Shown here piece by piece: positions 1-12,623 of a DNA stretch of 64,000 nt; position 1 is the first letter of the stretch; every line of letters starts with the position of its first letter. The position numbers and the translations under genes were made by a program. The stretch spans positions 4,722,145-4,786,144 of the forward strand of contig OY762911.1 in the NCBI GenBank assembly GCA_963666565.1, in the 5' to 3' direction. Source of the stretch: Thermoanaerobaculia bacterium (GTDB lineage Bacteria > Acidobacteriota > Thermoanaerobaculia > Multivoradales > Multivoraceae). Below the pieces are notes generated by a model that worked only from the letters and a program-made list of their open reading frames with translations, did not search any database and had not been told where the DNA came from.

Positions 1-1209
<1,209 letters not shown>

Positions 1210-1265
1210 GGACGGCCGGGGGGGAAGGTGCAAGGCCAGGCGATGCAATCCGGCACGACAGCGCC

Positions 1266-1318
1266 CTGGGTGCGCGGGTCTTCCGACCCGCACTGGGTGC
1301 GCGGGTCTTCCGACCCGC
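1266..1318 (+). repeat. Tandem pair of REP-like palindromes CTGGGTGCGCGGGTCTTCCGACCCGC
   Basis: Two identical 26-bp units (1266-1291, 1293-1318) with internal GCGGGTC/GACCCGC hairpin, in the gltB-gltD spacer. Confidence 0.9.
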
Positions 1319-1378
1319 TTCCGAGTGAACTCGCGCGAGGCGCCAGCCTCGCTCCTTCCTGTTGAGAGGGCGGCAGGC

Positions 1379-2878
1379 ATGGGCAAGGACACCGGCTTCA
1401 AGGAGTACGCGCGCGCCGCGGTTCCCTACCAGGATCCGCTGATCCGCCTGAGTCACTACGGCGAGTTCCTGGCGCCGGTGCCGGAACAGCACCTCGCCAC
1501 CCAGGGCGCCCGCTGCATGGACTGCGGCGTCCCCTTCTGCCAGTCCGACGAAGGCTGCCCGATCGACAACCTGATCCCGGAGTGGAACGACCTCGTCTAC
1601 CAGGGCCGCTGGAAGGAAGCGCTGCGGCGCCTGGAGAGGACGAACAACTTCCCCGAGTTCACCGGCCGCGTCTGCCCCGCCCCGTGCGAGGGCGCCTGCG
1701 TGCTGGGGATCACCGACCCGGCGGTGACGATCAAGAACATCGAGAACGCGATCGTCGACCGCGGCTTCGAGGAGGGCTGGATCGTTCCCCGCCCGCCCGT
1801 CAGGCGCACCGGCAAGAAGGTCGCGATCGTCGGTTCCGGGCCGGCGGGACTCGCCGCGGCGGCTCAGTTGAACGGCGTCGGCCACTCGGTCGCCGTCTTC
1901 GAACGCGAGGACCGCATCGGCGGCCTGCTGATGTACGGCATCCCGAACATGAAGCTCGACAAGCGCCTGGTCGTCGACCGGCGGATCGACCTGATGCGGG
2001 CCGAGGGCATCGAGTTCGTGACCGGCGCCCACGTCGGCGTGAACGTCGACGCCGCCGATCTGCGGCGCGACCACGACGCGATCCTGCTCGCCTGCGGCGC
2101 GACGAAGCCGCGCGATCTCCCCATCCCGGGCCGCGAGCTCGCGGGCGTCCATTTCGCGATGGACTTCCTGACCGAGCACACCCGTGCCCTTCTCGACGCC
2201 GATCTGCCGAGTGACGGCGCCCACCCTGTCCAGGCGCCGATTCACGCATCCGGAAAGAACGTCATCGTGATCGGCGGCGGCGACACCGGCGCCGACTGCA
2301 TCGCGACCGCAGTGCGCCACGGCTGCGCCTCGCTGGTTAACTTCGAACTGCTGGAGCGGCCGCCGGACGACCGGGCCGCCGATAACCCGTGGCCGGAATG
2401 GCCCCGCATCTTCCGCGTCGAGTACGCGCACGCCGAAGCCGCGGCCCGGTTCGGCGCCGACCCGCGCGTGTTCTCCGTTCTCTCCAAGCGCTTCGTCGAC
2501 GACGGCGCCGGCGGCGTCGCCGGTATCGAGACCGTCCGCGTCGCCTGGAAACGGGACGCCGGCGGCCGCTTCGCGATGGAGGAAGTGCCCGGAACCGAAG
2601 AGACCTTCGAGGCCGAACTCGTGCTCCTGGCAATGGGCTTCCTCGGCCCCGAAGCGACTCTCGGCGAGCGCTTGGGCCTCGCCACGGACGAGCGCAGCAA
2701 CTTCGCGGCAGAACCCGGCCGGTACGCGACCTCGGTCGAGGGGGTCTTCGCCGCCGGCGACTGCCGCCGCGGACAGAGCCTGATCGTGTGGGCGATCGCC
2801 GAGGGCCGCGGCGCCGCGGCCCGGATCGACGAGTACCTGACCGGGGCCACCGAACTGCCGCTGCCGTCGGCGCTCTGA
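1379..2878 (+). CDS. gltD: Glutamate synthase small subunit
   Basis: [28 protein letters not shown] and GGGDTG motifs; follows gltB; ATG at 1379 (MGKDTGF). Confidence 0.97.
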
Positions 2879-3049
2879 CCACCCTCCGTTCTGGTCGAAC
2901 AGATCGAACACCTCGATGCGGCATCCCACCGCGCGAACCCGACAGGTGTGCTCTTGACTCCTCGGAGGAGGACATCAGGGACTACTCCACCGGCGAGCTT
3001 CCAAGGGCGATGTTCAACTGAGATGGGCTGCACCAAGAGGTGCCCTCAC

Positions 3050-3524
3050 TCCATCTCTGCACCCCCGCCTTCGCGGCCGTCGACAAGGCCTTGGCCGCTC
3101 GGCGCCCCAACGCGCCGCTTGAAGCCGCGCCCTACCACACGCCCCATCACGACGGAACCTGATCCCAACTCAGAGTCCAGAAGCCGAGCGACCGCCGAGC
3201 TACTCGCCGCCCACAACCAGTCGATCACCAGCGCATCGAACAACGCACCGAAACGAGAGTCTCCCTCCGACCAGGGTGCGCTGATCGTGAGAACCCCCGT
3301 GCTCCGCGCACCGCACGCGGAGCACGTCCGCGGCCAAGATGGTCCGGTACGCTGCCGGATACGGGGGTCCCGATCTCGGCATCGCAGGTACCTCCTCCTA
3401 CGAGGAGGAAGTGCCTGCGGAACCGGGGCAAGCTCAACTCGTCCCCCTTCGATTCGGAAGGCCCCAGTGGTCTTCCGCCTTTCCCCCGGCATGCGACAAG
3501 GTCAATGAACGTCTTCGGAGAGCC
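3050..3524 (-). pseudogene. Frameshifted, truncated ISL3-family transposase relic
   Basis: Fragments YRTILAADVLRVRCAEHG and VLTISAPWSEGDSRFGALFDALVIDWL..SSAVARLL lie in different frames; ISL3-like terminus GGCTCT begins at 3524 on the minus strand. Confidence 0.75.
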
Positions 3525-4113
3525 AGTACCCGAACGCTTTCTCCAGATTCTCTCTGGCAGAGCTAACCGCTTGGCGCACATACTCGGCTTCAGAATCGGC
3601 ACGAATCCGACTCAGCTCTCGCCGAACCGTAGTCAGGATCCGAGTAGCATTGCGCATATCGGGATGCCGTGCATACGGGCGAAGGGCACGACGATGTTCC
3701 AGAAGTGCGCGGAGACTCCAATCTCGCAGTTCTGGGTGGCTGTACATGGGCTCTGTCGTTCTCGTGTCTGAGACACCATCCAAGATGCGAAAGACGATCG
3801 TCGCTTTGTAGTTCTCTGCAGCCATCCAGTCTGGATCATGCCAAGAGTCGAGTCTACTAAGGGCGTTCTCCACTCGCGTCGGAACCTCGACGTCGATCAG
3901 GCGCACCATGCGATCCTCTTCCTTCGCTTCGGCGAATTCTCCTTGGAAAAACGAAAAGAGAATCGGCAGGGAGACAACGGCTAGAGAAGGCAGTAGAGCC
4001 ACAAAGAAAGGCTCGTTCAGGAAACGCCATAGGCCTCGGCGCTGTCCCTTCATTGGGCCAGGCTCACAAGTGGCCTGTATCTTCGATTCGTCGGCTGACG
4101 CGCTACTCTTCAC
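3502..4113 (-). CDS. Hypothetical protein with N-terminal membrane segment (island cargo)
   Basis: 203-aa ORF in lower-GC DNA; hydrophobic stretch PFFVALLPSLAVVSLPILFSFF; the last codons overlap the ISL3 end. Confidence 0.6.
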   Translation of the reverse strand: MKSSASADESKIQATCEPGPMKGQRRGLWRFLNEPFFVALLPSLAVVSLPILFSFFQGEFAEAKEEDRMVRLIDVEVPTRVENALSRLDSWHDPDWMAAENYKATIVFRILDGVSDTRTTEPMYSHPELRDWSLRALLEHRRALRPYARHPDMRNATRILTTVRRELSRIRADSEAEYVRQAVSSARENLEKAFGYWLSEDVH

Positions 4114-4184
4114 CCAAAGCGTCTCCCTGGTGTCAGCGGTTCCGAGAGAGTAGGGGGCCTCTGGCTGGGGGCGCTCAACCTAGC

Positions 4185-6590
4185 CTAGAAGCTGAACCGA
4201 GCGCCAATCTGTAACTGACGCCAGGACGTGACTCGGCCGGACGGTATGCCGAGGTCTTCGGGAACTACGCCGCCCTCCACGTTTCGCTGGCTGAAGCCGA
4301 CCGCGAAGCTGTGTTCGTCGAATAGGTTAAAGGCCTCGACGAACACGTCCAGGCGCATTTCATCGCCGAACCGGAAGAACCTGCCGACGCGGACATCGAC
4401 CGTCTGGAGCGACTCGTTCCTGAAGGTGTTTCGTCCTACGACGGAACCATCGATGATGGCTCGGTAGTCGGGGCAGTTGAAGATGGGCCACCCGCAGCCG
4501 ATACTGTCGAAGCCTCGGACGGGTGTGTCGCGGTCGTTCACATCAACGGCCGTGTACGGCGTTCCCGACTGGTAGTTCAGGATGCCGGAGATCTGGAAGT
4601 CGGCCGGCAACTGGACCATGCCCGTAACTACGAGCCGGTGCTTCACGTCACGATCCGAGAGGCCCCAGTCGTAGTCCAGGTTGCCGGTGTCGGAGATCGT
4701 GACGCCGGTCGCCGAACGCTCGTTCGAGTCGGTGTCGCGATCCTCGCCCCAGGTGTAGTGGGCGCCGAACTGGTAGCGACCGGTGAAGCGCTTGTTCGCC
4801 TTGAGCGTGACCGCCTGATACTCGGACTCGCCCCGAGACTGGCGAACGAGGACTTCGGCGCACCGGATTTCGTCGAGACCCGGGCACACGTCATTGCGGC
4901 CGGCCCACATCGGGCGGCCGTACGGGTCGTAGCCGCCGAAGACCCGGTTGAAGTCCGTGTTGCGCTGCAGGCTGGTCGCTTCGGCATACACGGCATCGAC
5001 GCCGGCGCTCCAGCCGCCGCCGAGTTCCCGCTCCCAGCCGACGCTGGCGCGCAGCGTTTGGGCGTCGTCGAACTCGGGATCCACGTACGAGATGGCGGGA
5101 ATGATGCCCGGCGGCGGGTTCTCGTTGTCGATCTGCGTCCCGAGCGGCACGTAGCCGTTCTGGCCGGGACGAACCGTGATGCGACCGTAGTTCGGCGGTA
5201 CGCCGTTGGCCTGAACCTGGTTGGCGAACAGCAGGGTGGGCGTGCGGCCGAAGAAGAAGCCGATGCCGCCGCGGAGGACCGACCGGCCCTCGTCCTGGGA
5301 CCTGGCGAAGCCGAAGCGGGGCGCCAGGTTCTCGGTGTCCGGGATCTGGCGGCCGTCCGGGTGCAGGTGATCCAGGCCGTCCGGGTTGTCCGTGGACGTA
5401 TAGCGGAGGCCGTAACTGATTGTCACGTTGTCCCGCTTGAGACTGTCCTGCCCGTAGAAGGCGAGGGCCTCCTGAGTCTCGTCGTAGTTCGGGTACGTCG
5501 AATCGCCGAACCAGATTCGCGCCCGGAAAGCCTCGTTGCTCAAGAAGTCCTCCGGCGAGCCGAAGTCATAGCGGCCGTCGCGGCTGCCGGCGAAGAGCTG
5601 CGCCAGATCGTCCTTCGAGTAGTCGACGCCGAACTTCATGTCATGGGCACCGAACAGGTAGGAGAAGTCGTTCTTGACCTGGAGCTGCTCTTCCTCAACG
5701 AAGATCGGGAGGAAGTCGAACTTGCCAACGCTGTCAAACTCGTCGAAGAAGAAGCGGACCTGCGCCTCGATTGGCGTGCCGACCCGCTTGGACAGGCGAT
5801 CCAGATTGTCCGTCGCGGACTGAATCCGGAACTCGTTGACGCCACGGCTGCCGACGACCGAGGTCATCGATGCGATGATGGACAGCGTGTCCTCCGTCTT
5901 CAGCGACTCCTCGTCCAGGTAGTCGCTCTCCCGCTCGAAGTCCGTCACATTGGCGCGCAGGGTGATGAGGTTCGAGTCGTTGATCTGGTGGTCCAGCTTG
6001 CCGAAGAGGATCTGGTTGCTCACCGAGCGCAGGAACAAGCCGGTGGCGGAACCGTCGGCGTTTCGCTCGAAGCCGTCGACCAGAGCCGCGAATCCGGGCT
6101 CTGTCTCCGCCCTCTTCATGATCAGGTCGTAGGTGCTGTTGACGCCGGTCGAGCGCAGCGAGCGGGAGAACGGGATGTCCTGGTCGCGGAGGTCGACGCC
6201 GAAGTAGTAGTGGGTGCGATCCTGCTTGAACGGACCACCGACCGAGAAGCCGTAGTTCTGGGTGTCGAACTCGTCCACCGGTCGCGAGCCGTCACGGCCC
6301 CGGAAGTCGTCGAGAGGCGACGAAGGAATGTCCTCGGCCATGCTGTCGTCGCGGAACTGGTAGAAGGCCGAGCCCCTCATCTCGTTCGTGCCGGACTTCG
6401 TGACCACGTTGACGAAGGCGCCGCCGTGCCGGCCGTACTCGGCCGAGAAGCCGTTGGTGATGACCTGGAACTGGCGAACCGTGTCCTGGGCGATGATCAG
6501 GCCGTCGTTCTCGGTCGCCTCGCCGCCCCGGCCATAGCCGAAGAAGGTGCTCTTGTTGTCCGCGCCGTCAACGGAAAGGCCGCTGTACAT
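4185..6590 (-). CDS. 5'-truncated TonB-dependent receptor cassette (801 aa, no signal peptide or N-terminal domain), paralog of 8368-11301
   Basis: Colinear with the full-length receptor from MYSGLSVDG to C-terminal RFSF; in-frame TGA two codons upstream of the ATG; no internal stops. Confidence 0.9.
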   Translation of the reverse strand: MYSGLSVDGADNKSTFFGYGRGGEATENDGLIIAQDTVRQFQVITNGFSAEYGRHGGAFVNVVTKSGTNEMRGSAFYQFRDDSMAEDIPSSPLDDFRGRDGSRPVDEFDTQNYGFSVGGPFKQDRTHYYFGVDLRDQDIPFSRSLRSTGVNSTYDLIMKRAETEPGFAALVDGFERNADGSATGLFLRSVSNQILFGKLDHQINDSNLITLRANVTDFERESDYLDEESLKTEDTLSIIASMTSVVGSRGVNEFRIQSATDNLDRLSKRVGTPIEAQVRFFFDEFDSVGKFDFLPIFVEEEQLQVKNDFSYLFGAHDMKFGVDYSKDDLAQLFAGSRDGRYDFGSPEDFLSNEAFRARIWFGDSTYPNYDETQEALAFYGQDSLKRDNVTISYGLRYTSTDNPDGLDHLHPDGRQIPDTENLAPRFGFARSQDEGRSVLRGGIGFFFGRTPTLLFANQVQANGVPPNYGRITVRPGQNGYVPLGTQIDNENPPPGIIPAISYVDPEFDDAQTLRASVGWERELGGGWSAGVDAVYAEATSLQRNTDFNRVFGGYDPYGRPMWAGRNDVCPGLDEIRCAEVLVRQSRGESEYQAVTLKANKRFTGRYQFGAHYTWGEDRDTDSNERSATGVTISDTGNLDYDWGLSDRDVKHRLVVTGMVQLPADFQISGILNYQSGTPYTAVDVNDRDTPVRGFDSIGCGWPIFNCPDYRAIIDGSVVGRNTFRNESLQTVDVRVGRFFRFGDEMRLDVFVEAFNLFDEHSFAVGFSQRNVEGGVVPEDLGIPSGRVTSWRQLQIGARFSF

Positions 6591-6750
6591 GCCTCACTGG
6601 TCGGGCTTCAGTTCCATGAAGGTCCGAAGAGCAGGAGAGAGTCCGGGAACAACCGAGAACTCCTGTAGACACCGTCACTTGTGAAGGTCTCGTTACGTTG
6701 CCCAAGGCCGCGGATGCGGTTGACGGCAAACGGCAAATCGCCGACGGGAT

Positions 6751-6778
6751 TGGGGGAAGTGGGGGACACGGTGAGGGA
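6751..6778 (+). promoter_or_regulatory. Candidate integrase arm-type binding repeats TGGGGGA/TGGGGGA/TGAGGGA
   Basis: Three short direct repeats just upstream of the integrase start; similar G-rich repeats commonly precede P4-like integrases. Confidence 0.4.
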
Positions 6779-6811
6779 GTGCCATACGGCCGTCCTTGCT
6801 ATGTTCGAGCG

Positions 6812-7948
6812 ATGCCCCTTACCCAACGGAGAGTCGACGCCGTCAGACCCACCGGCCGGCCCTTCAAGCTGTACGACCGCGACGGCCTGATGCTCAGGGT
6901 CACCGCCGCCGGCAAGAGCCGATGGGTCTGGAGAGGCGTCGTCAAGGGAAAGCGGATCGAGGTCGGCATGGGCTCGACACGTTTCCGCTCGCTGAAGGAG
7001 GCAAGGGAGGTCGCCTTCGAGAATACGAGAACGGCGAGACTGGGAGGCGATCCCAGAGCGGCCGTGTCCTCTGACGTTCCGACCTTCAGGGAAGCCGCGA
7101 CGCTCTATCTGGAGATCCAGTCCACCGATTGGGGAGAGGCCCACTCCCGCCAAGTCAGACGGATGCTGGAGCGCCATGCGTTCCCGGGCTTCGGGGACCT
7201 TCCGGTAGACGAGATCCAGACCGCCGACGTGATGCGGGTTCTGGTACCGCTGTGGCGGCGTCAGAGGCCGACCGGACAGCGGCTCAGGCAGAGGATCGCC
7301 GGCGTCATGGCGTGGAGCGTAGCGGCGGGCTACCGGGCCGACGATCCGACGAGCACTCTCTCGGCGGTCTTGCCCGCCGGCCGGACGCGGCGGAAGCACC
7401 ATCGCTACCTGCCCGCCGTCAAGCTGCGCGAAGCACTGGTCAAGGTGCAGGACTCCGGAGCATGGATCGGAACGCGGTTGGCCATGCGCTTCCTGGCGCT
7501 GACGGCGGCGCGCTCCGGCGAGGTGCGTGGAGCGAGGTGGCGGGAGATCGATCTGGAGTCGGTCACGTGGACCGTTCCCGCCTCGCGGATGAAGGCGCGC
7601 CGTGAGCACCGGGTCCCCCTCTCCAGCGCGGCCCTTGCGGTCCTTGAGCGGGCCGGCGGACTTCGGGGTCGGGGCAGAGGGCTCGTCTTTCCCGGCGTCC
7701 AGGGGAAGATGGTCGGTGTGTCGGTGTTCGGTCGGCTGCTGAGAGACCTCGATATCGATTGCAGCCCGCACGGGTTCCGCAGTGCGTTTCGGTCGTGCTG
7801 CTCCGACGAGGGGATCGACCGGGAGTTGGCGGAACAGGCCCTGGCACACGCGGTCGGGAGCCAGGTCGAGCAGTGCTATGCGCGAAGCGACGTGCTGGAG
7901 CGCCGCCGAGACGTCATGGAGGCTTGGGGTGCGTTCCTGGTCCAGTAG
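6812..7948 (+). CDS. P4-like tyrosine integrase with N-terminal arm-binding domain
   Basis: N-terminus LTQRRVDAVRP..KLYDRDGLMLRV..G..RWVWR; catalytic R (ARSGEVRG), K (MKARREH), HxxR (HGFRS), H (LAH) and Y (QCYARSD). Confidence 0.93.
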   Translation: MPLTQRRVDAVRPTGRPFKLYDRDGLMLRVTAAGKSRWVWRGVVKGKRIEVGMGSTRFRSLKEAREVAFENTRTARLGGDPRAAVSSDVPTFREAATLYLEIQSTDWGEAHSRQVRRMLERHAFPGFGDLPVDEIQTADVMRVLVPLWRRQRPTGQRLRQRIAGVMAWSVAAGYRADDPTSTLSAVLPAGRTRRKHHRYLPAVKLREALVKVQDSGAWIGTRLAMRFLALTAARSGEVRGARWREIDLESVTWTVPASRMKARREHRVPLSSAALAVLERAGGLRGRGRGLVFPGVQGKMVGVSVFGRLLRDLDIDCSPHGFRSAFRSCCSDEGIDRELAEQALAHAVGSQVEQCYARSDVLERRRDVMEAWGAFLVQ

Positions 7949-8190
7949 CGGACGGACCGGACATGCAGGGCCGTGGTCCAGGCTCGCGCCGCAGCTTCGC
8001 CGCGGCGCGGGGGGCTTTCCCAGGGGCAATCCAGTCCCCTGGGCGGAGCCACGGAGCTGGCCCTGCCGTTGGCTCATAGACAGCCGGATCGAGCGCCTCC
8101 GCGAAGGCTTCAACGCCCCGGCGGAGACTCTCCGCGTGAAGTCCGCGAACCGTGCCGTCGATTCAATATCTTGAAGCGAGCCGCCCTCCG

Positions 8191-8220
8191 TTGACGGGGG
8201 GCGAAGCGATTCTCTATAGT
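8191..8220 (+). promoter_or_regulatory. Sigma70-like promoter of the TonB receptor (TTGACG-N18-TATAGT)
   Basis: Near-consensus -35 and -10; TTCAA-N4-TTGAA palindrome at 8162-8175 just upstream. Confidence 0.6.
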
Positions 8221-8367
8221 CGTACCCGGTCTGTGGCCTTGCGCGCGAGCGCCCCACCACCGCCACCCACTCGGACAATCGAGAGACCTTCCACGCGTGA
8301 AGCGCACGCCGGTGAATTCGTGCCGAATTCGACGGCGCCTACTCAGACACAGAGGAGAAACCCCACC

Positions 8368-11301
8368 ATGCAGTCGACCCGCCTCCGGGCACGTCTTCTT
8401 GCGACCCTCCTGGCAACGGCCTGCGTCCTCCTGATCGGCGGCGCCGGCTTCGCCCAGACGATCACCGGCACCGTCCAGGGCTACATCTCGGATGTCGAGG
8501 GCGGCCCGATTCCCGGCGTCACGGTGACCGTCACCAACCAGGACACCGGCATCGCCCGCGCCGCCATCGCGGACGCCAACGGCTTCTACAGCGCCAAGGC
8601 GCTCCAGGTCGGCACCTACTCGGTGACCGCCGAACTCGCCGGCATGCAGACCACGCAGCAGAGCGACGTCTCCGTCCTGGTCGGCCAGATCAAGGACGTC
8701 AACCTGACCCTCGAGGTCGAGTCGACCTCCGAGGTGATCACCGTCACGTCCGAGGCCCCGATCATCGAGGTCAGTCGTTCGGGCGCCGCCAACTACATCG
8801 ACGAGGTCGCCATCGAGAGCCTGCCGATCGTCGGCCGCGACTTCACCGACTTCGCGATTCTCACTCCCGGCGTCCAGCGCGACCGTTCCCGCGGCTTCCT
8901 GACCATGGCCGGTCAGCGCGGCATGTACAGCGGCCTGTCGGTCGACGGCGCGGACAACAAGAGCACCTTCTTCGGTTACGGCCGCGGCGGCGAGGCCACC
9001 GAGAACGACGGCCTGATCATCGCCCAGGACACGGTGCGCCAGTTCCAGGTCATCACGAACGGCTTCTCGGCCGAGTACGGCCGGCACGGCGGCGCCTTCA
9101 TCAACGTCGTCACGAAGTCCGGCACGAACGAGCTCAGGGGTTCGGCCTTCTACCAGTTCCGGGACGACAGCATGGCCGAGGATCTGCCGTCCTCGCCGCT
9201 CGACGACTTCAACGACCGCGACGGCTCGCGTCCGGTGGACACGTTCGACACCCAGAACTACGGCGTCTCGATCGGCGGGCCGTTCAAGCGCGACCGTACC
9301 CACTACTATTTCGGAATCGACCAGCGCGACCAGGACATCCCGTTCACCCGGTTCCTGACCAACCGCGGCGGCAGCGTCTATGACCTGGTCATGCAGCGAG
9401 CGCAGAGCGAGCCCGCCTTCGCCGCCCTGGTGGACGGCTTCGAGCGAAACTCCGACGGCTCCGCCACCGGCCTGTTCACGCGCTCGGTGAGCAACCAGAT
9501 CCTGTTCGGCAAGCTGGACCACCAGATCAGCGACGCGAACCTGATCACCCTGCGAGCCAACTGGACGGACTTCGAACGGGAGAGCAGCTTCCTCGACGAG
9601 GAGTCGCTCAAGACGGAGGACACGCTGTCGATCATCGCGTCGATGACCTCGGTCGTCGGCAGCCGCGGCGTGAACGAGTTCCGAATTCAGACGGCCGACG
9701 ACAACCTGGATCGCCTGTCCTTGCGGGTCGGCACGCCGATCGAGGCGCAGGTCCGCTTCCGCTGGAACGGCGCGAGCGTCGGCAAGTACGACTTCCTGCC
9801 GATCTTCGTGGAGGAGTCGCAGCTCCAGGTCAAGAACGACTTCTCCTACCTGTTCGGCGCCCACGACATGAAGTTCGGCGTCGACTACTCGAAGGACGAC
9901 CTGGCCCAGCTCTTCGCCGGCAGCCGCGACGGCCGCTACGACTTCCGCTCGCCGGAGGACTTCCTGTCCAACAACTCAAGCGCCGCCCGGATCTGGTTCG
10001 GCGATTCGACCTATCCGAACTACGACGAGACCCAGGCGGCTCTCGCCTTCTACGGCCAGGACAGCCAGAAGCGCGACAACATGACGATCAGCTACGGCCT
10101 CCGCTACACGTCCACGGACAACCCGGACGGTCTCGATCATCTGCATCCGGACGGCCGCCAGATCCCGGACACCGAGAACCTGGCGCCCCGCTTCGGCTTC
10201 GCCATGGCCCAGGACGAGGGCCGGTCGGTTCTCCGCGGCGGCATCGGCTTCTTCTTCGGGCGCACGCCCACCCTGCTGTTCGCCAACCAGGTTCAGGCCA
10301 ACGGCGTGCCGCCGAACTACGGCCGCATCACCGTCACTCCCGGCGAGAACGGCTACGTGCCGCTCGGAACGCCGATCGACAATGAGAACCCGCCGCCGGG
10401 CATCATCCCCGCGATCTCCTACGTCGACCCCGAGTTCGACGACGCCCAGACGCTGCGCGCCAGCATCGGCTGGGAGCGGGAGCTCGGCGACGGCTGGAGC
10501 GCCGGAGTCGACGCCGTGTACGCGGAGGGCACGAGCCTGCAGCGCAACACGGACTTCAACCGCGTCTTCGGCGGCTACGACGAGTACGGTCGCCCGATGT
10601 GGAACGGCCGCAACGAAGGAACCTGCCCCGGAGTCCCGGGCGCCGAATGCGCCGAGATCCTGGTTCGGCAGTCCCGCGGCGAGTCCGAGTACCAGGCGGT
10701 CACGCTGAAGGCGAACAGGCGCTTCACCGGCCGCTACCAGATGAGCGCCCACTACACCTGGGGCAAGGATCGCGACACCGACTCGAACGAGCGTTCGGCG
10801 ACCGGCGTCACGATCTCGGACACCGGCAACCTCGACTACGACTGGGGTCTCTCGGACCGCGACGTCAAGCACCGTCTGGTGGTCACCGGCATGATCCAGT
10901 TGCCGCTCGACTTCCAGATCTCGGGCATCGTGAACTACCAGTCGGGTACCCCGTACACGCTGGTCGACAACGGCGTCGACTGGGCTTACTGTCGCACGGT
11001 CGGCTGGAACTGCCCGGACTACCGTGCGGTGATGGACGGCGTCGTCGTCGGCCGGAACACGGAGCGGAACGAGTCGATCCAGACGATCGACGTTCGCCTC
11101 GGCAAGTTCTTCACCTTCGGCGACGGCATGCGGCTCGACGTCTTCGTCGAGGCGTTCAACCTGTTCGACGAGAACAGCTTCGGCGTCGGCTTCAACCAGC
11201 GCAACATCCGCAACGGCAACGTTCCCGACGACTTCGGGGTCCCGTCGTACCTGACGACGCGCCCGCGCCAGTTGCAGATCGGAGGCCGGTTCAGCTTCTA
11301 G
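8368..11301 (+). CDS. Full-length Oar-like TonB-dependent receptor with carboxypeptidase-regulatory-like N-terminal domain
   Basis: AGAGGAG RBS, signal peptide (..GGAGFA-Q), GTVQG..D..GGPIPGVTVTVTN, plug motif FSAEYGRHGGAFINVVTKSGTN, terminal Phe. Confidence 0.95.
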   Translation: MQSTRLRARLLATLLATACVLLIGGAGFAQTITGTVQGYISDVEGGPIPGVTVTVTNQDTGIARAAIADANGFYSAKALQVGTYSVTAELAGMQTTQQSDVSVLVGQIKDVNLTLEVESTSEVITVTSEAPIIEVSRSGAANYIDEVAIESLPIVGRDFTDFAILTPGVQRDRSRGFLTMAGQRGMYSGLSVDGADNKSTFFGYGRGGEATENDGLIIAQDTVRQFQVITNGFSAEYGRHGGAFINVVTKSGTNELRGSAFYQFRDDSMAEDLPSSPLDDFNDRDGSRPVDTFDTQNYGVSIGGPFKRDRTHYYFGIDQRDQDIPFTRFLTNRGGSVYDLVMQRAQSEPAFAALVDGFERNSDGSATGLFTRSVSNQILFGKLDHQISDANLITLRANWTDFERESSFLDEESLKTEDTLSIIASMTSVVGSRGVNEFRIQTADDNLDRLSLRVGTPIEAQVRFRWNGASVGKYDFLPIFVEESQLQVKNDFSYLFGAHDMKFGVDYSKDDLAQLFAGSRDGRYDFRSPEDFLSNNSSAARIWFGDSTYPNYDETQAALAFYGQDSQKRDNMTISYGLRYTSTDNPDGLDHLHPDGRQIPDTENLAPRFGFAMAQDEGRSVLRGGIGFFFGRTPTLLFANQVQANGVPPNYGRITVTPGENGYVPLGTPIDNENPPPGIIPAISYVDPEFDDAQTLRASIGWERELGDGWSAGVDAVYAEGTSLQRNTDFNRVFGGYDEYGRPMWNGRNEGTCPGVPGAECAEILVRQSRGESEYQAVTLKANRRFTGRYQMSAHYTWGKDRDTDSNERSATGVTISDTGNLDYDWGLSDRDVKHRLVVTGMIQLPLDFQISGIVNYQSGTPYTLVDNGVDWAYCRTVGWNCPDYRAVMDGVVVGRNTERNESIQTIDVRLGKFFTFGDGMRLDVFVEAFNLFDENSFGVGFNQRNIRNGNVPDDFGVPSYLTTRPRQLQIGGRFSF

Positions 11302-11355
11302 GCTGAGCGGTGCCAGAGCAGCCGCGGCGCCCGAGGCCGCGGCAAAGAGAAATCG

Positions 11356-11383
11356 AGGGCCTCCCCAGCAACGGGGAGGCCCT
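11356..11383. terminator. Intrinsic terminator hairpin, probably bidirectional
   Basis: AGGGCCTCCCC-agcaac-GGGGAGGCCCT between convergent genes, with A-rich and T-rich flanks. Confidence 0.75.
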
Positions 11384-11409
11384 TCTTCGTCAACGATCGC
11401 GGAGCGGCT

Positions 11410-12378
11410 TCAGAGCCGGAGAAGTCGAAGGAGTTCCGCTTCGTCGGCACACATCTGCGCCGCCTTGGCGATCTCGACCTCGGACAAGCCGCGGAGGCCG
11501 GCCAGGCGTTCGGCAAGGTCCGGGCTCGTCGGTACGCCGCGCGCATCGAGCACGGCGACCGCCATCCGGGCACGCCCTGCGGCGAGGCCCTCGTCACGGC
11601 CCTCGTCGCGCTCAGCTCGCAGCCACGGATCGTCGTCCGGGCCGGTACCCTCGAGCGCGCCCATAGCGCGGCCCACGCGACGGAGAACCTCCAGGGTCTC
11701 CGGCGACGGCAGGTCGCGGCTCAGGGCAACGTGGATCTCTTCGGCGGTCCAGCCCGGAAAGGCCCGGCTGGAGGCCGCTTCCCGGAAGCGCTCGCCGTGG
11801 TGAAGGTGAATCGTCAGACCGGACAGCAACGACCTCGGATACGAGCGTTCGTCCGGCACGTCGATCCAGACCTCCGGGAAGCCCCAAGCCTCGTACAGCG
11901 GCAGCTTCCACAACCGCGCGTCGGTCGAGTAGTCGACTTCCAGCACGACGTCCGGCAGTTCGCCGCCGTCAATGTCCACCCGCGCCCCGGCCGGCAACGC
12001 GGCCGGATCCAGGTAGAGGATCTGGTCGGCCTGCATCAGCACCCTGTACCCGCCGTCAGCCTTGGCGCGCACCAGATCCGCCGTCCCCAACGTCTCGATC
12101 GGCGCGCCTCTCGACGCCGCGATGCGCTCGGCCAACCTGGCCAACCGCTGCGAGGGGCGCTCGTGATAGACGGTCGTCGGTTCGCGCAGGACCATGGCCC
12201 GCTCCGTGCGTTCCTCCCAGTACTCCACGCGGCCCTCGTAGTCGTCGATCCGCTCCTTCGGGATCCGAACCGTCCGGCAACCGGACTCGGCGGCCAGGGC
12301 CAGCGGCGATGCAACCGGCTCGGGACGTCCCGCTTCCGGCGGCCGCGGGTTCGGGGTTCGGACGGGCGGTTCAGCCAT
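11410..12378 (-). CDS. Uma2 (DUF820)-like PD-(D/E)XK endonuclease-fold protein
   Basis: HERPS.., QADQILY, LPDVVLEVDYS, KLPLYEAWGFPEVW and a C-terminal EGRDEG tail. Confidence 0.8.
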   Translation of the reverse strand: MAEPPVRTPNPRPPEAGRPEPVASPLALAAESGCRTVRIPKERIDDYEGRVEYWEERTERAMVLREPTTVYHERPSQRLARLAERIAASRGAPIETLGTADLVRAKADGGYRVLMQADQILYLDPAALPAGARVDIDGGELPDVVLEVDYSTDARLWKLPLYEAWGFPEVWIDVPDERSYPRSLLSGLTIHLHHGERFREAASSRAFPGWTAEEIHVALSRDLPSPETLEVLRRVGRAMGALEGTGPDDDPWLRAERDEGRDEGLAAGRARMAVAVLDARGVPTSPDLAERLAGLRGLSEVEIAKAAQMCADEAELLRLLRL

Positions 12379-12399
12379 GGCCCGAGCGTACACCGGCGC

Positions 12400-12545
12400 T
12401 CGGGCCTTCGGCAGCGAGAACCCGGACTGCGGAACGTCGCGGTCGAGAAAGGTCTCCACGAAACTCTGGCGCCACAGGGCGGACAGGTCGCCGTCCTCGG
12501 CCAGAAAGCTGCGAGGGAACCCGCCCCGCAACCAGAGCTTCCGCC
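12400..12545 (-). pseudogene. Short internal fragment of an AAA/DUF4143-type ATPase gene
   Basis: LWLRGGFPRSFLA...WRQSFVETFLDRDVPQ resembles that family's mid-protein motif; no P-loop nearby. Confidence 0.55.
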
Positions 12546-12623
12546 ATCCGCCTGGAGTTGCTTGAAAATCGCTCGGTCAAGAGACGATTTTCCCGAAACT
12601 TCCGGTGCGGACCGCGTCTCAGG

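Follow-up and report, generated by a model that had tools for sequence, protein, structure and literature searches.

Genetic organisation of the gltD-receptor region

A 64,000 nt stretch of the genome of a Thermoanaerobaculia bacterium (GenBank assembly GCA_963666565.1, contig OY762911.1; forward strand coordinates 4,722,145–4,786,144), here called the window, was examined for the origin and content of a candidate mobile island that lies between gltD, the gene for the small subunit of glutamate synthase, and the gene for a TonB-dependent-type receptor. The gltD gene (coordinates 1325–2878, forward strand) is full length, matching TIGR01317 from position 1 to 485 of 485 (E value 1e-225) as well as the Pfam families Fer4_20 and Pyr_redox_2. 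The resident receptor gene (8368–11301, forward strand) encodes a protein of 977 amino acids (aa) with a CarboxypepD_reg domain and an OMP_b-brl_4 barrel (Pfam), and its orthologs in 37 loci of related bacteria are 81–93% identical. Between the two genes lie an inverted, 5'-truncated second copy of the receptor gene, referred to as the cassette (4185–6590, reverse strand), and a gene for a tyrosine integrase of the P4/CP4-57 type (6812–7948, forward strand). An earlier note on this DNA had proposed that this segment is a discrete island bounded by a diverged copy of the gltD 3' end, that it targets gltD, and that it delivers an alternative allele of the receptor next to which it is found.

An island inserted at the 3' end of gltD

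Related loci were collected by a scan with the receptor protein, taking one genome per species, and the proteins of the window were mapped onto each of the 41 loci found. Almost all of these are metagenome-assembled sequences from uncultured bacteria labelled Candidatus Multivorans, Holophagales or Thermoanaerobaculia (Acidobacteriota); the name Candidatus Multivorans was not found in the literature searched. At 36 of the 41 loci, gltD and the receptor gene are only 206–339 bp apart, with no integrase gene and no second receptor copy. The empty gltD-receptor junction that was to be looked for in relatives is therefore present, and the proposal of a discrete island between two gltD ends is borne out. 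The other five loci comprise one that is occupied (L006, described below), two contig fragments that do not include the receptor start (L013 and L035), and two distant (56%) homologs with no gltD upstream (L039 and L040).

The 3' end of gltD is found twice in the window as a direct repeat on the forward strand. Copy 1 (2837–2879) forms an attL-like left junction and consists of the last 13 codons and the stop codon of the functional gltD, which keeps a complete 3' end and a full-length frame through this copy. Copy 2 (8039–8081) forms an attR-like right junction and is a displaced, decaying gltD 3' end from which the stop codon has been lost. Copy 2 and the 290 bp that follow it correspond site by site to the gltD 3' end and spacer of island-free relatives such as L008, L029, L034 and L041, and the window's own gltD resembles those relatives only up to its stop codon. 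A second gltD end was not detected in the spacer of any of the 36 island-free loci (best match to the 36-mer of their own gltD, 21/36). The sequence at 8038–8073, the retention of which in island-free relatives had been named as a possible objection, is held by them once, as the functional end of gltD, as the insertion model predicts. As the empty relatives have a single gltD end and copy 2 occupies the position of that end, these alignments indicate that ~2879–8038 is a real insertion. The island so defined (2879–8038, ~5.2 kb) has a G+C content of 0.56–0.66 against 0.69–0.72 in the flanks. Its location within the last 14 codons of gltD, just upstream of the receptor promoter, is well supported.

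The similarity between 2836–2871 and 8038–8073 from which the island had been recognised was confirmed, 28 of the 36 nt being identical, and the synonymous pairs GGG/GGA, ACC/ACG and GAA/GAG are present as described. The peptide L-G-G-A-T-E-L-A-L-P-L-A reported for copy 2 is also present, in a frame that begins one base later (8039–8074; 2837–2872 in copy 1), and 8 of the 12 residues are identical in the two copies. The integrase stop codon ends at 7948 and copy 2 begins 90 bp later, in agreement with the distance given previously. When the repeat was carried through the stop codon, 31 of 43 positions were identical (2837–2879 versus 8039–8081). Compared with the gltD ends of relatives, copy 1 matches at 25–33 of 36 positions and copy 2 at up to 30, and copy 2 differs at positions that are conserved in all gltD genes.

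A match of only 28 in 36 nt might arise by chance in a genome of ~70% G+C. However, in a search of both strands of the window with the gltD 36-mer, this match was the best and the runner-up reached only 24/36, and 1 of 2965 pairs of random 100-nt and 200-nt segments of the window attained 28/36. As copy 2 is, in addition, positionally homologous to the gltD ends of relatives, a chance origin was rejected, and its probability is considered negligible. A tRNA gene as the target was also rejected, there being no tRNA or tmRNA gene in the window.

The end of gltD was found to vary among the relatives. In nine of them (L001, L002, L005, L009–L011, L015, L019 and L024), ~75 bp of the spacer is gone (~9760–9800; ~5970–6010 in L019), and gltD runs into a conserved element, CGATTCAACATCTTGA, and has other last residues. 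Judging from these sequences, the gltD C-terminus and the junction are variable even in island-free relatives.

The integrase and probable movement of the island

The integrase frame is open from 6698, and the probable start at 6812 gives a protein of 378 aa with Arm-DNA-bind_3, Phage_int_M and Phage_integrase domains and matches to PRK09692 and phrog_1. The N-terminal part matches the N-domain structure of a CP4-like integrase (PDB 3jtz) and the central part matches core-binding domain structures of phage integrases (2khv and 2kkv). The translation includes candidates for the catalytic residues R, K, H-x-x-R, H and Y, judged against the catalytic motif, and the integrase is apparently intact with all three domains. 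It is 32–36% identical to many phage integrases. Close homologs (81–94% identical, 378–389 aa) make up ~17 protein clusters with ~200 member sequences, and the next tier is at most 52% identical.

Of the related loci, 39 extend over the start of the receptor gene, and one of these has the island as well. In this locus, L006 of record OZ242353.1, which is from another species, the same island precedes the same receptor gene and encodes an integrase with 92.7% aa sequence identity, again with an inverted cassette. Window coordinates 4954–8045 and L006 coordinates 6670–9764 share 93.5% nt identity, and the right end up to 8045 is common to both. The synonymous distance (dS) between the window and L006 is 0.165 for the cassette and 0.207 for the integrase gene, and for host sequences it is 0.33 (larA), 0.32 (receptor arm, the part of the receptor gene that matches the cassette) and 0.24 (receptor 5' part). 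The ratio of non-synonymous to synonymous distance (dN/dS) for the integrase gene is 0.17. In a tree of larA and the 3-keto-disaccharide-hydrolase gene (29 rows), the window and L006 were not sisters, with weak inner branches, and the clade that holds both also takes in six island-free species. The lower dS within the island, together with the non-sister placement, speaks for lateral transfer to the same site, or for precise loss on several occasions, rather than for simple vertical inheritance.

The statement that the element targets gltD stands in part. Insertion at the gltD 3' end was found, and the island also lies before the same receptor gene in L006, but with two occurrences the statement does not extend to targeting by the integrase family as a whole. 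The gltD junction was read in the window only, as the gltD side of L006 lies past the 10 kb compared, behind a prophage.

Islands with P4/SGI1-type tyrosine integrases are known in the ends of protein-coding genes, such as SGI1 at the trmE 3' end and dusA-specific islands at the dusA 5' end (PMC8409611, PMC4482086). The island examined here is like these in having a three-domain integrase with an arm-binding N-terminus, in being inserted in the terminal codons of a housekeeping gene with the frame preserved, and in being flanked by a repeat of the target end. In contrast, the target is gltD, the copies of the repeat are far less alike, an excisionase was not found, and the island carries as cargo part of the gene that adjoins its insertion site. 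By analogy with SGI1-type islands at trmE, the island was probably acquired through site-specific recombination at the gltD 3' end, catalysed by the integrase. Some observations do not sit easily with a clean attachment site. The longest identical run between the two copies of the repeat is 7 nt. The right junction of L006 is without window sequence 8046 to ~8107, which is most of copy 2. A search with Pfam, NCBIfam and PHROGs revealed no excisionase among open reading frames (ORFs) of at least 40 aa in 2879–4184 and 7782–8194, though small divergent ones could escape it.

Alternatively, the segment could have come from a relative by homologous replacement or by a rearrangement driven by insertion sequences (IS), with no site-specific integration, and the second gltD end would then be the edge of the segment. 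This would be consistent with the imperfect repeat (31/43), with an IS remnant in the island, with the IS3, IS256 and IS21 elements and rearrangements that are common just downstream of the receptor gene in relatives, and with the right junction of L006 being unlike that of the window. However, the boundaries of the insert are exact, its start lying directly behind the stop codon of gltD and its end at the displaced copy of the gltD 3' end. In addition, the integrase gene, which is intact, is found 90 bp from the junction, and L006 has the same right end (up to 8045). A replacement or IS-driven origin is thus very unlikely.

The right junction is straddled by an inverted repeat, CCCAGGGG-N9-CCCCTGGG (8019–8043, forward strand), for which this is the sole match in the window and which is partly kept in L006. 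With ~1.2 chance matches expected at up to 3 mismatches, it is not significant alone. As it has no copy at the cassette or receptor edges, a shared core site was rejected.

The silent receptor cassette

The cassette is an open frame of 801 codons that corresponds to residues 186–977 of the receptor, in inverted orientation. It shares 681 of 802 aa (85%) with the resident receptor, and the two arms are 86.5% identical over 2384 aligned nt. The homology extends from 6599–6604 down to 4182 in the cassette and from 8909–8914 to 11304 in the receptor arm, starting abruptly and ending at the stop codons. The cassette is without the first 185 receptor codons, the signal peptide, the promoter and the CarboxypepD_reg domain, and includes only part of the region N-terminal to the barrel. 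A TGA codon is in frame two codons before the ATG, and a GAGG sequence lies only 1 nt before this ATG; with these features and no signal peptide, the cassette was rejected as a gene for a stand-alone protein. Without a signal peptide, and with a stop codon upstream, the cassette cannot, judging from its sequence, work alone and could function only after recombination with its neighbour. Thus, the island does carry a variant of the receptor, as the earlier note had claimed, but not a delivered allele that is usable as it is, being inverted and without promoter, 5' end and signal peptide.

The cassettes of the window and L006 are truncated at the same point and are separated from the integrase gene by the same spacer, and both must therefore derive from one truncated ancestor. 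This spacer, between the 5' edge of the cassette and the integrase start (6605–6811), is conserved in L006. It includes TGAAGGTC at 6617 and at 6682; no other candidate for arm-type repeats was found, and as this pair is not kept in L006 it was rejected.

Truncated receptor ORFs that start within 6 residues of the cassette start were also found in other assemblies (P0056, 786 aa; P0058, 792 aa). Each of them groups with a full-length receptor of a different lineage (95.7% and 90.9% identity, respectively), and the truncated forms do not make up one clade. A fixed recombination point may have given rise to this pattern, but assembly breaks at the edge of a repeat would do so too. Cassettes and integrases were also compared by the lengths of their contigs, and none were equal.

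In L006, a prophage (coordinates 1–6988) is located within the cassette at codon 546. It includes a gene for a terminase large subunit (15–1214) and a second, unrelated tyrosine integrase gene (5585–6988) that adjoins the junction on the same strand as the cassette, and it might represent a phage that integrates into receptor-gene sequence. Further receptor fragments were seen downstream of the resident gene in L009 (15395–16251) and L036 (13834–13998). These are partial and frameshifted, begin at approximately residue 486–504 of the arm, and adjoin IS3, IS256 and IS21 elements.

Selection on the cassette

The cassettes of the window and L006 differ by 57 synonymous and 22 non-synonymous changes. 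Under neutrality, 76% of the changes would be expected to be non-synonymous (p 8e-20), and dN/dS is 0.11. When the changes were polarised with orthologs, the ratio of synonymous to non-synonymous changes was 23:6 on the window branch and 30:12 on the L006 branch, corresponding to dN/dS values of 0.08–0.12 on both. Differences between the cassette and the resident receptor affect 54 of the 106 columns that vary among orthologs and 3 of the 310 columns that are invariant. These substitution patterns indicate that the cassette is kept under purifying selection in two host lineages.

The island could be real and integrase-borne and yet carry the cassette as inert baggage, with the receptor fragment having arisen by aberrant recombination in an earlier host. 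In line with this, a flipped state and a footprint of exchange with the resident gene were not found (see below), the cassette in L006 contains a stop codon and is cut by a prophage, other junk is present in the island in the form of an IS3 remnant, and decayed receptor fragments occur near IS elements in L009 and L036. However, dN/dS has been 0.08–0.12 on both branches since the truncated copies split, the frame in the window is intact over 801 codons, and the changes avoid positions that are invariant in the family. The composition of the gene (G+C content of 0.88 at third codon positions) could, on a rough estimate, inflate the apparent dS perhaps two-fold, not ten-fold. Inert baggage is thus unlikely, and if the cassette has no part in a switch, strong purifying selection on a piece of a gene whose product could not be exported stays unexplained.

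A possible inversion switch

The integrase gene, the gltD remnant, a promoter-like site and the first 180 codons of the receptor gene all lie between the inverted arms (6604 to 8909). From this geometry, an invertible segment of 2.3 kb (6605–8908) can be predicted. The longest exact repeat between the arms is 58 nt, and the gap between the coding sequences (CDS) of the cassette and the receptor (6590 to 8368) is 1777 bp. The edge of the arms is the same in the window and L006, and apparently also in P0056 and P0058.

Following arrival at gltD, a crossover anywhere in the 2.4-kb inverted arms would flip 6605–8908. The expressed 5' module of the receptor would then be joined in frame to the cassette, followed by orf203, the gene directly downstream of the cassette, and the resident barrel would be silenced; orf203 would be co-transcribed with the cassette after inversion. 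Either the integrase, acting at the fixed edge of the arms, or homologous recombination of the host could bring about the flip. As the differences between the two barrels are concentrated in patches where species vary as well, a switch would be predicted to alter portions of the receptor exposed at the cell surface, for example as a defence against phages that use the receptor; we infer from the sequence that the variable patches are surface loops. Patches at residues 330–344, 468–470, 751–758, 867–885 and 946–966 are candidates for such loops. A spare barrel exchanged with its neighbour by inversion is the preferred reading of the cassette, with a chance put at a little short of even. Since selection keeps the cassette readable, the island may be a transferable kit for changing the neighbouring receptor. 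Rather doubtful is the fuller proposal of a horizontally transferable switch, in which the element picks gltD because the receptor gene adjoins it and flips by means of its own integrase at a second site, codon ~180 of the receptor gene, perhaps changing a phage receptor. Phase variation would in that case be acquired together with the element.

A number of findings argue against a switch. The flipped state was not found in any genome or protein, and the two island-bearing genomes, those of the window and L006, do not differ in orientation. A comparison with 5.8 billion proteins gave no full-length receptor that exceeds 87% identity to the cassette. In a four-sequence site test for exchange between the cassette and the resident gene, the two cassettes were grouped together by 93 sites, the copies of the same genome by 7 and the remaining pairing by 2, with no conversion tract, and gene conversion between cassette and resident was therefore rejected. 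The arms are only 86.5% identical, and their edges have no short perfectly conserved site beyond what coding conservation accounts for. The integrase is of an integrating, arm-binding type and not a dedicated invertase. The stop codon in the L006 cassette and the prophage that cuts it suggest that loss of the cassette is tolerated, and P0056 and P0058 may be assembly breaks.

Three occurrences of the motif CCTGACCNNGGCC were found in the window (2836, 8898 and 45660), against 0.18 expected by chance. The occurrence at 2836 corresponds to the first bases of copy 1 of the gltD repeat, and that at 8898 lies at the edge of the receptor arm. The motif was defined after both sites had been seen, and a rough estimate of the probability of this coincidence is 0.01–0.06. 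It encodes Leu-Thr-x-Ala in both gltD and the receptor gene and is only partly kept in the receptor genes of relatives, where the GGCC part is not conserved. The two sites hint at one enzyme acting at both, which is a lead and not evidence.

In another reading, the true target of the integrase is the receptor gene near codon 180, the cassette is a 2.4-kb replacement 3' end, displacing the resident barrel, and gltD is a look-alike secondary site. The 5' edge of the cassette is 207 bp upstream of the integrase start, a common distance from an attachment site to an integrase gene. Truncated ORFs with the same start are found in unrelated receptor lineages, as would be expected of displaced 3' ends, the CCTGACCNNGGCC occurrences at 2836 and 8898 would fit, and purifying selection on the cassette would also be accounted for. 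However, the element has been opened at the gltD junction in both the window and L006, so the cassette edge cannot be the sole attachment site of the element, and the cassette is inverted relative to the receptor gene, not in tandem with it. With CCTGACCNNGGCC being post hoc, coding, and without its GGCC part in the receptors of relatives, integration into the receptor gene is quite unlikely to be the explanation, and recombination at the gltD 3' end is preferred.

Comparison with known receptor variation systems

In Bacteroides, SusC/RagA TonB-linked outer-membrane proteins undergo shufflon-like gene-altering inversions, with a tyrosine recombinase gene nearby. The arrangement in the window is similar in that a full-length receptor gene with a promoter, an inverted promoterless 5'-truncated copy and a tyrosine recombinase gene are found in one locus. 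However, the host belongs to the Acidobacteriota, the recombinase is of the integrating P4 type, and the module is on a rare insertion. In length (2.4 kb) and identity (86%), the arms are unlike the short exact sites of the SusC/RagA systems, and the inversion considered here is read from the geometry of the locus. In Neisseria, antigenic variation of pilE from the silent cassettes of pilS occurs by gene conversion. Like these cassettes, the one in the island is a promoterless partial copy of a surface-protein gene that is kept readable, but it is single and inverted, is accompanied by a recombinase gene, and has left no mosaic tracts in the expressed gene.

Gene-altering programmed inversions have been associated with a repeat of at least 44 bp and a CDS distance of at most 2588 bp (PMC9881135). 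The 58-nt exact run and the 1777 bp CDS gap fall within both of these limits, which are two of the four attributes given in that paper. In the same paper, TonB-linked outer-membrane proteins are among the enriched targets of such inversions, and the cases confirmed by long reads are from Actinobacteria, Bacteroidetes, Firmicutes and Proteobacteria; the word Acidobacteria is absent from it.

Among the papers listed in searches of the literature, mainly at the level of abstracts, there was neither a link between integrases and gltD nor an integrative island with a cassette of this kind; one of these papers (PMC3163468) mentions gltD once. Both islands at the ends of protein-coding genes and switching of TonB-linked receptors by inversion have precedents, and at this locus the two are found together, in a rare, laterally moving insertion that carries a selected spare part for the gene beside it. 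Should the switch be real, bacteria could obtain complete surface-variation systems by horizontal transfer, the role of an invertase would be taken by an integrating enzyme of the P4 type, and the Acidobacteriota would be added to the groups in which receptors vary in this way.

Additional features of the region

The 3' end of gltB, encoding the large subunit of glutamate synthase (1–1209, forward strand; Pfam GXGXG and Glu_synthase), precedes gltD in the window, and the same gene is found before gltD in relatives. The 1.3 kb that follow gltD have a lower G+C content and no family matches, and include one real-looking gene, orf203 (3502–4113, reverse strand, as the cassette), which is predicted to encode a single-pass membrane protein of an unannotated family. 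Homologs in 18 clusters were detected at an E value of at most 0.001, each ~200 aa in length, the best being 70% identical over the full length. Pfam, NCBIfam, PHROGs and PADLOC gave no match for orf203, and no informative match was found in the PDB. As a segment of ~95 bp (3343–3436) is ~78% identical to the ends of IS3-type elements in L004 and L009, it appears to be the end remnant of an IS3-family IS, and the left part of the island is, from this sequence, partly decayed.

To the right of copy 2, the original gltD-receptor spacer (8082–8367, forward strand) aligns with the spacers of island-free relatives and includes the promoter-like site and a conserved leader. The promoter-like site (TTGACG-18-TATAGT, 8191–8220) was the sole one detected in a promoter scan of 2800–11600. 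This site and the ~147-nt leader that follows it (8191–8367) are conserved in all relatives, and the leader may be a regulatory leader of the receptor gene. It has a hairpin at ~8311–8340, in which 4 of 21 predicted pairs show compensatory changes among 18 sequences. The leader had no match in Rfam, and a riboswitch was rejected on this basis.

The gene after the receptor gene (11410–12576, reverse strand) encodes a 388 aa protein with no Pfam family and a weak match to PADLOC PDC-S01 (E value 6e-5). Depending on the species, 0 to 4 diverged tandem copies of this gene are present between the receptor gene and larA.

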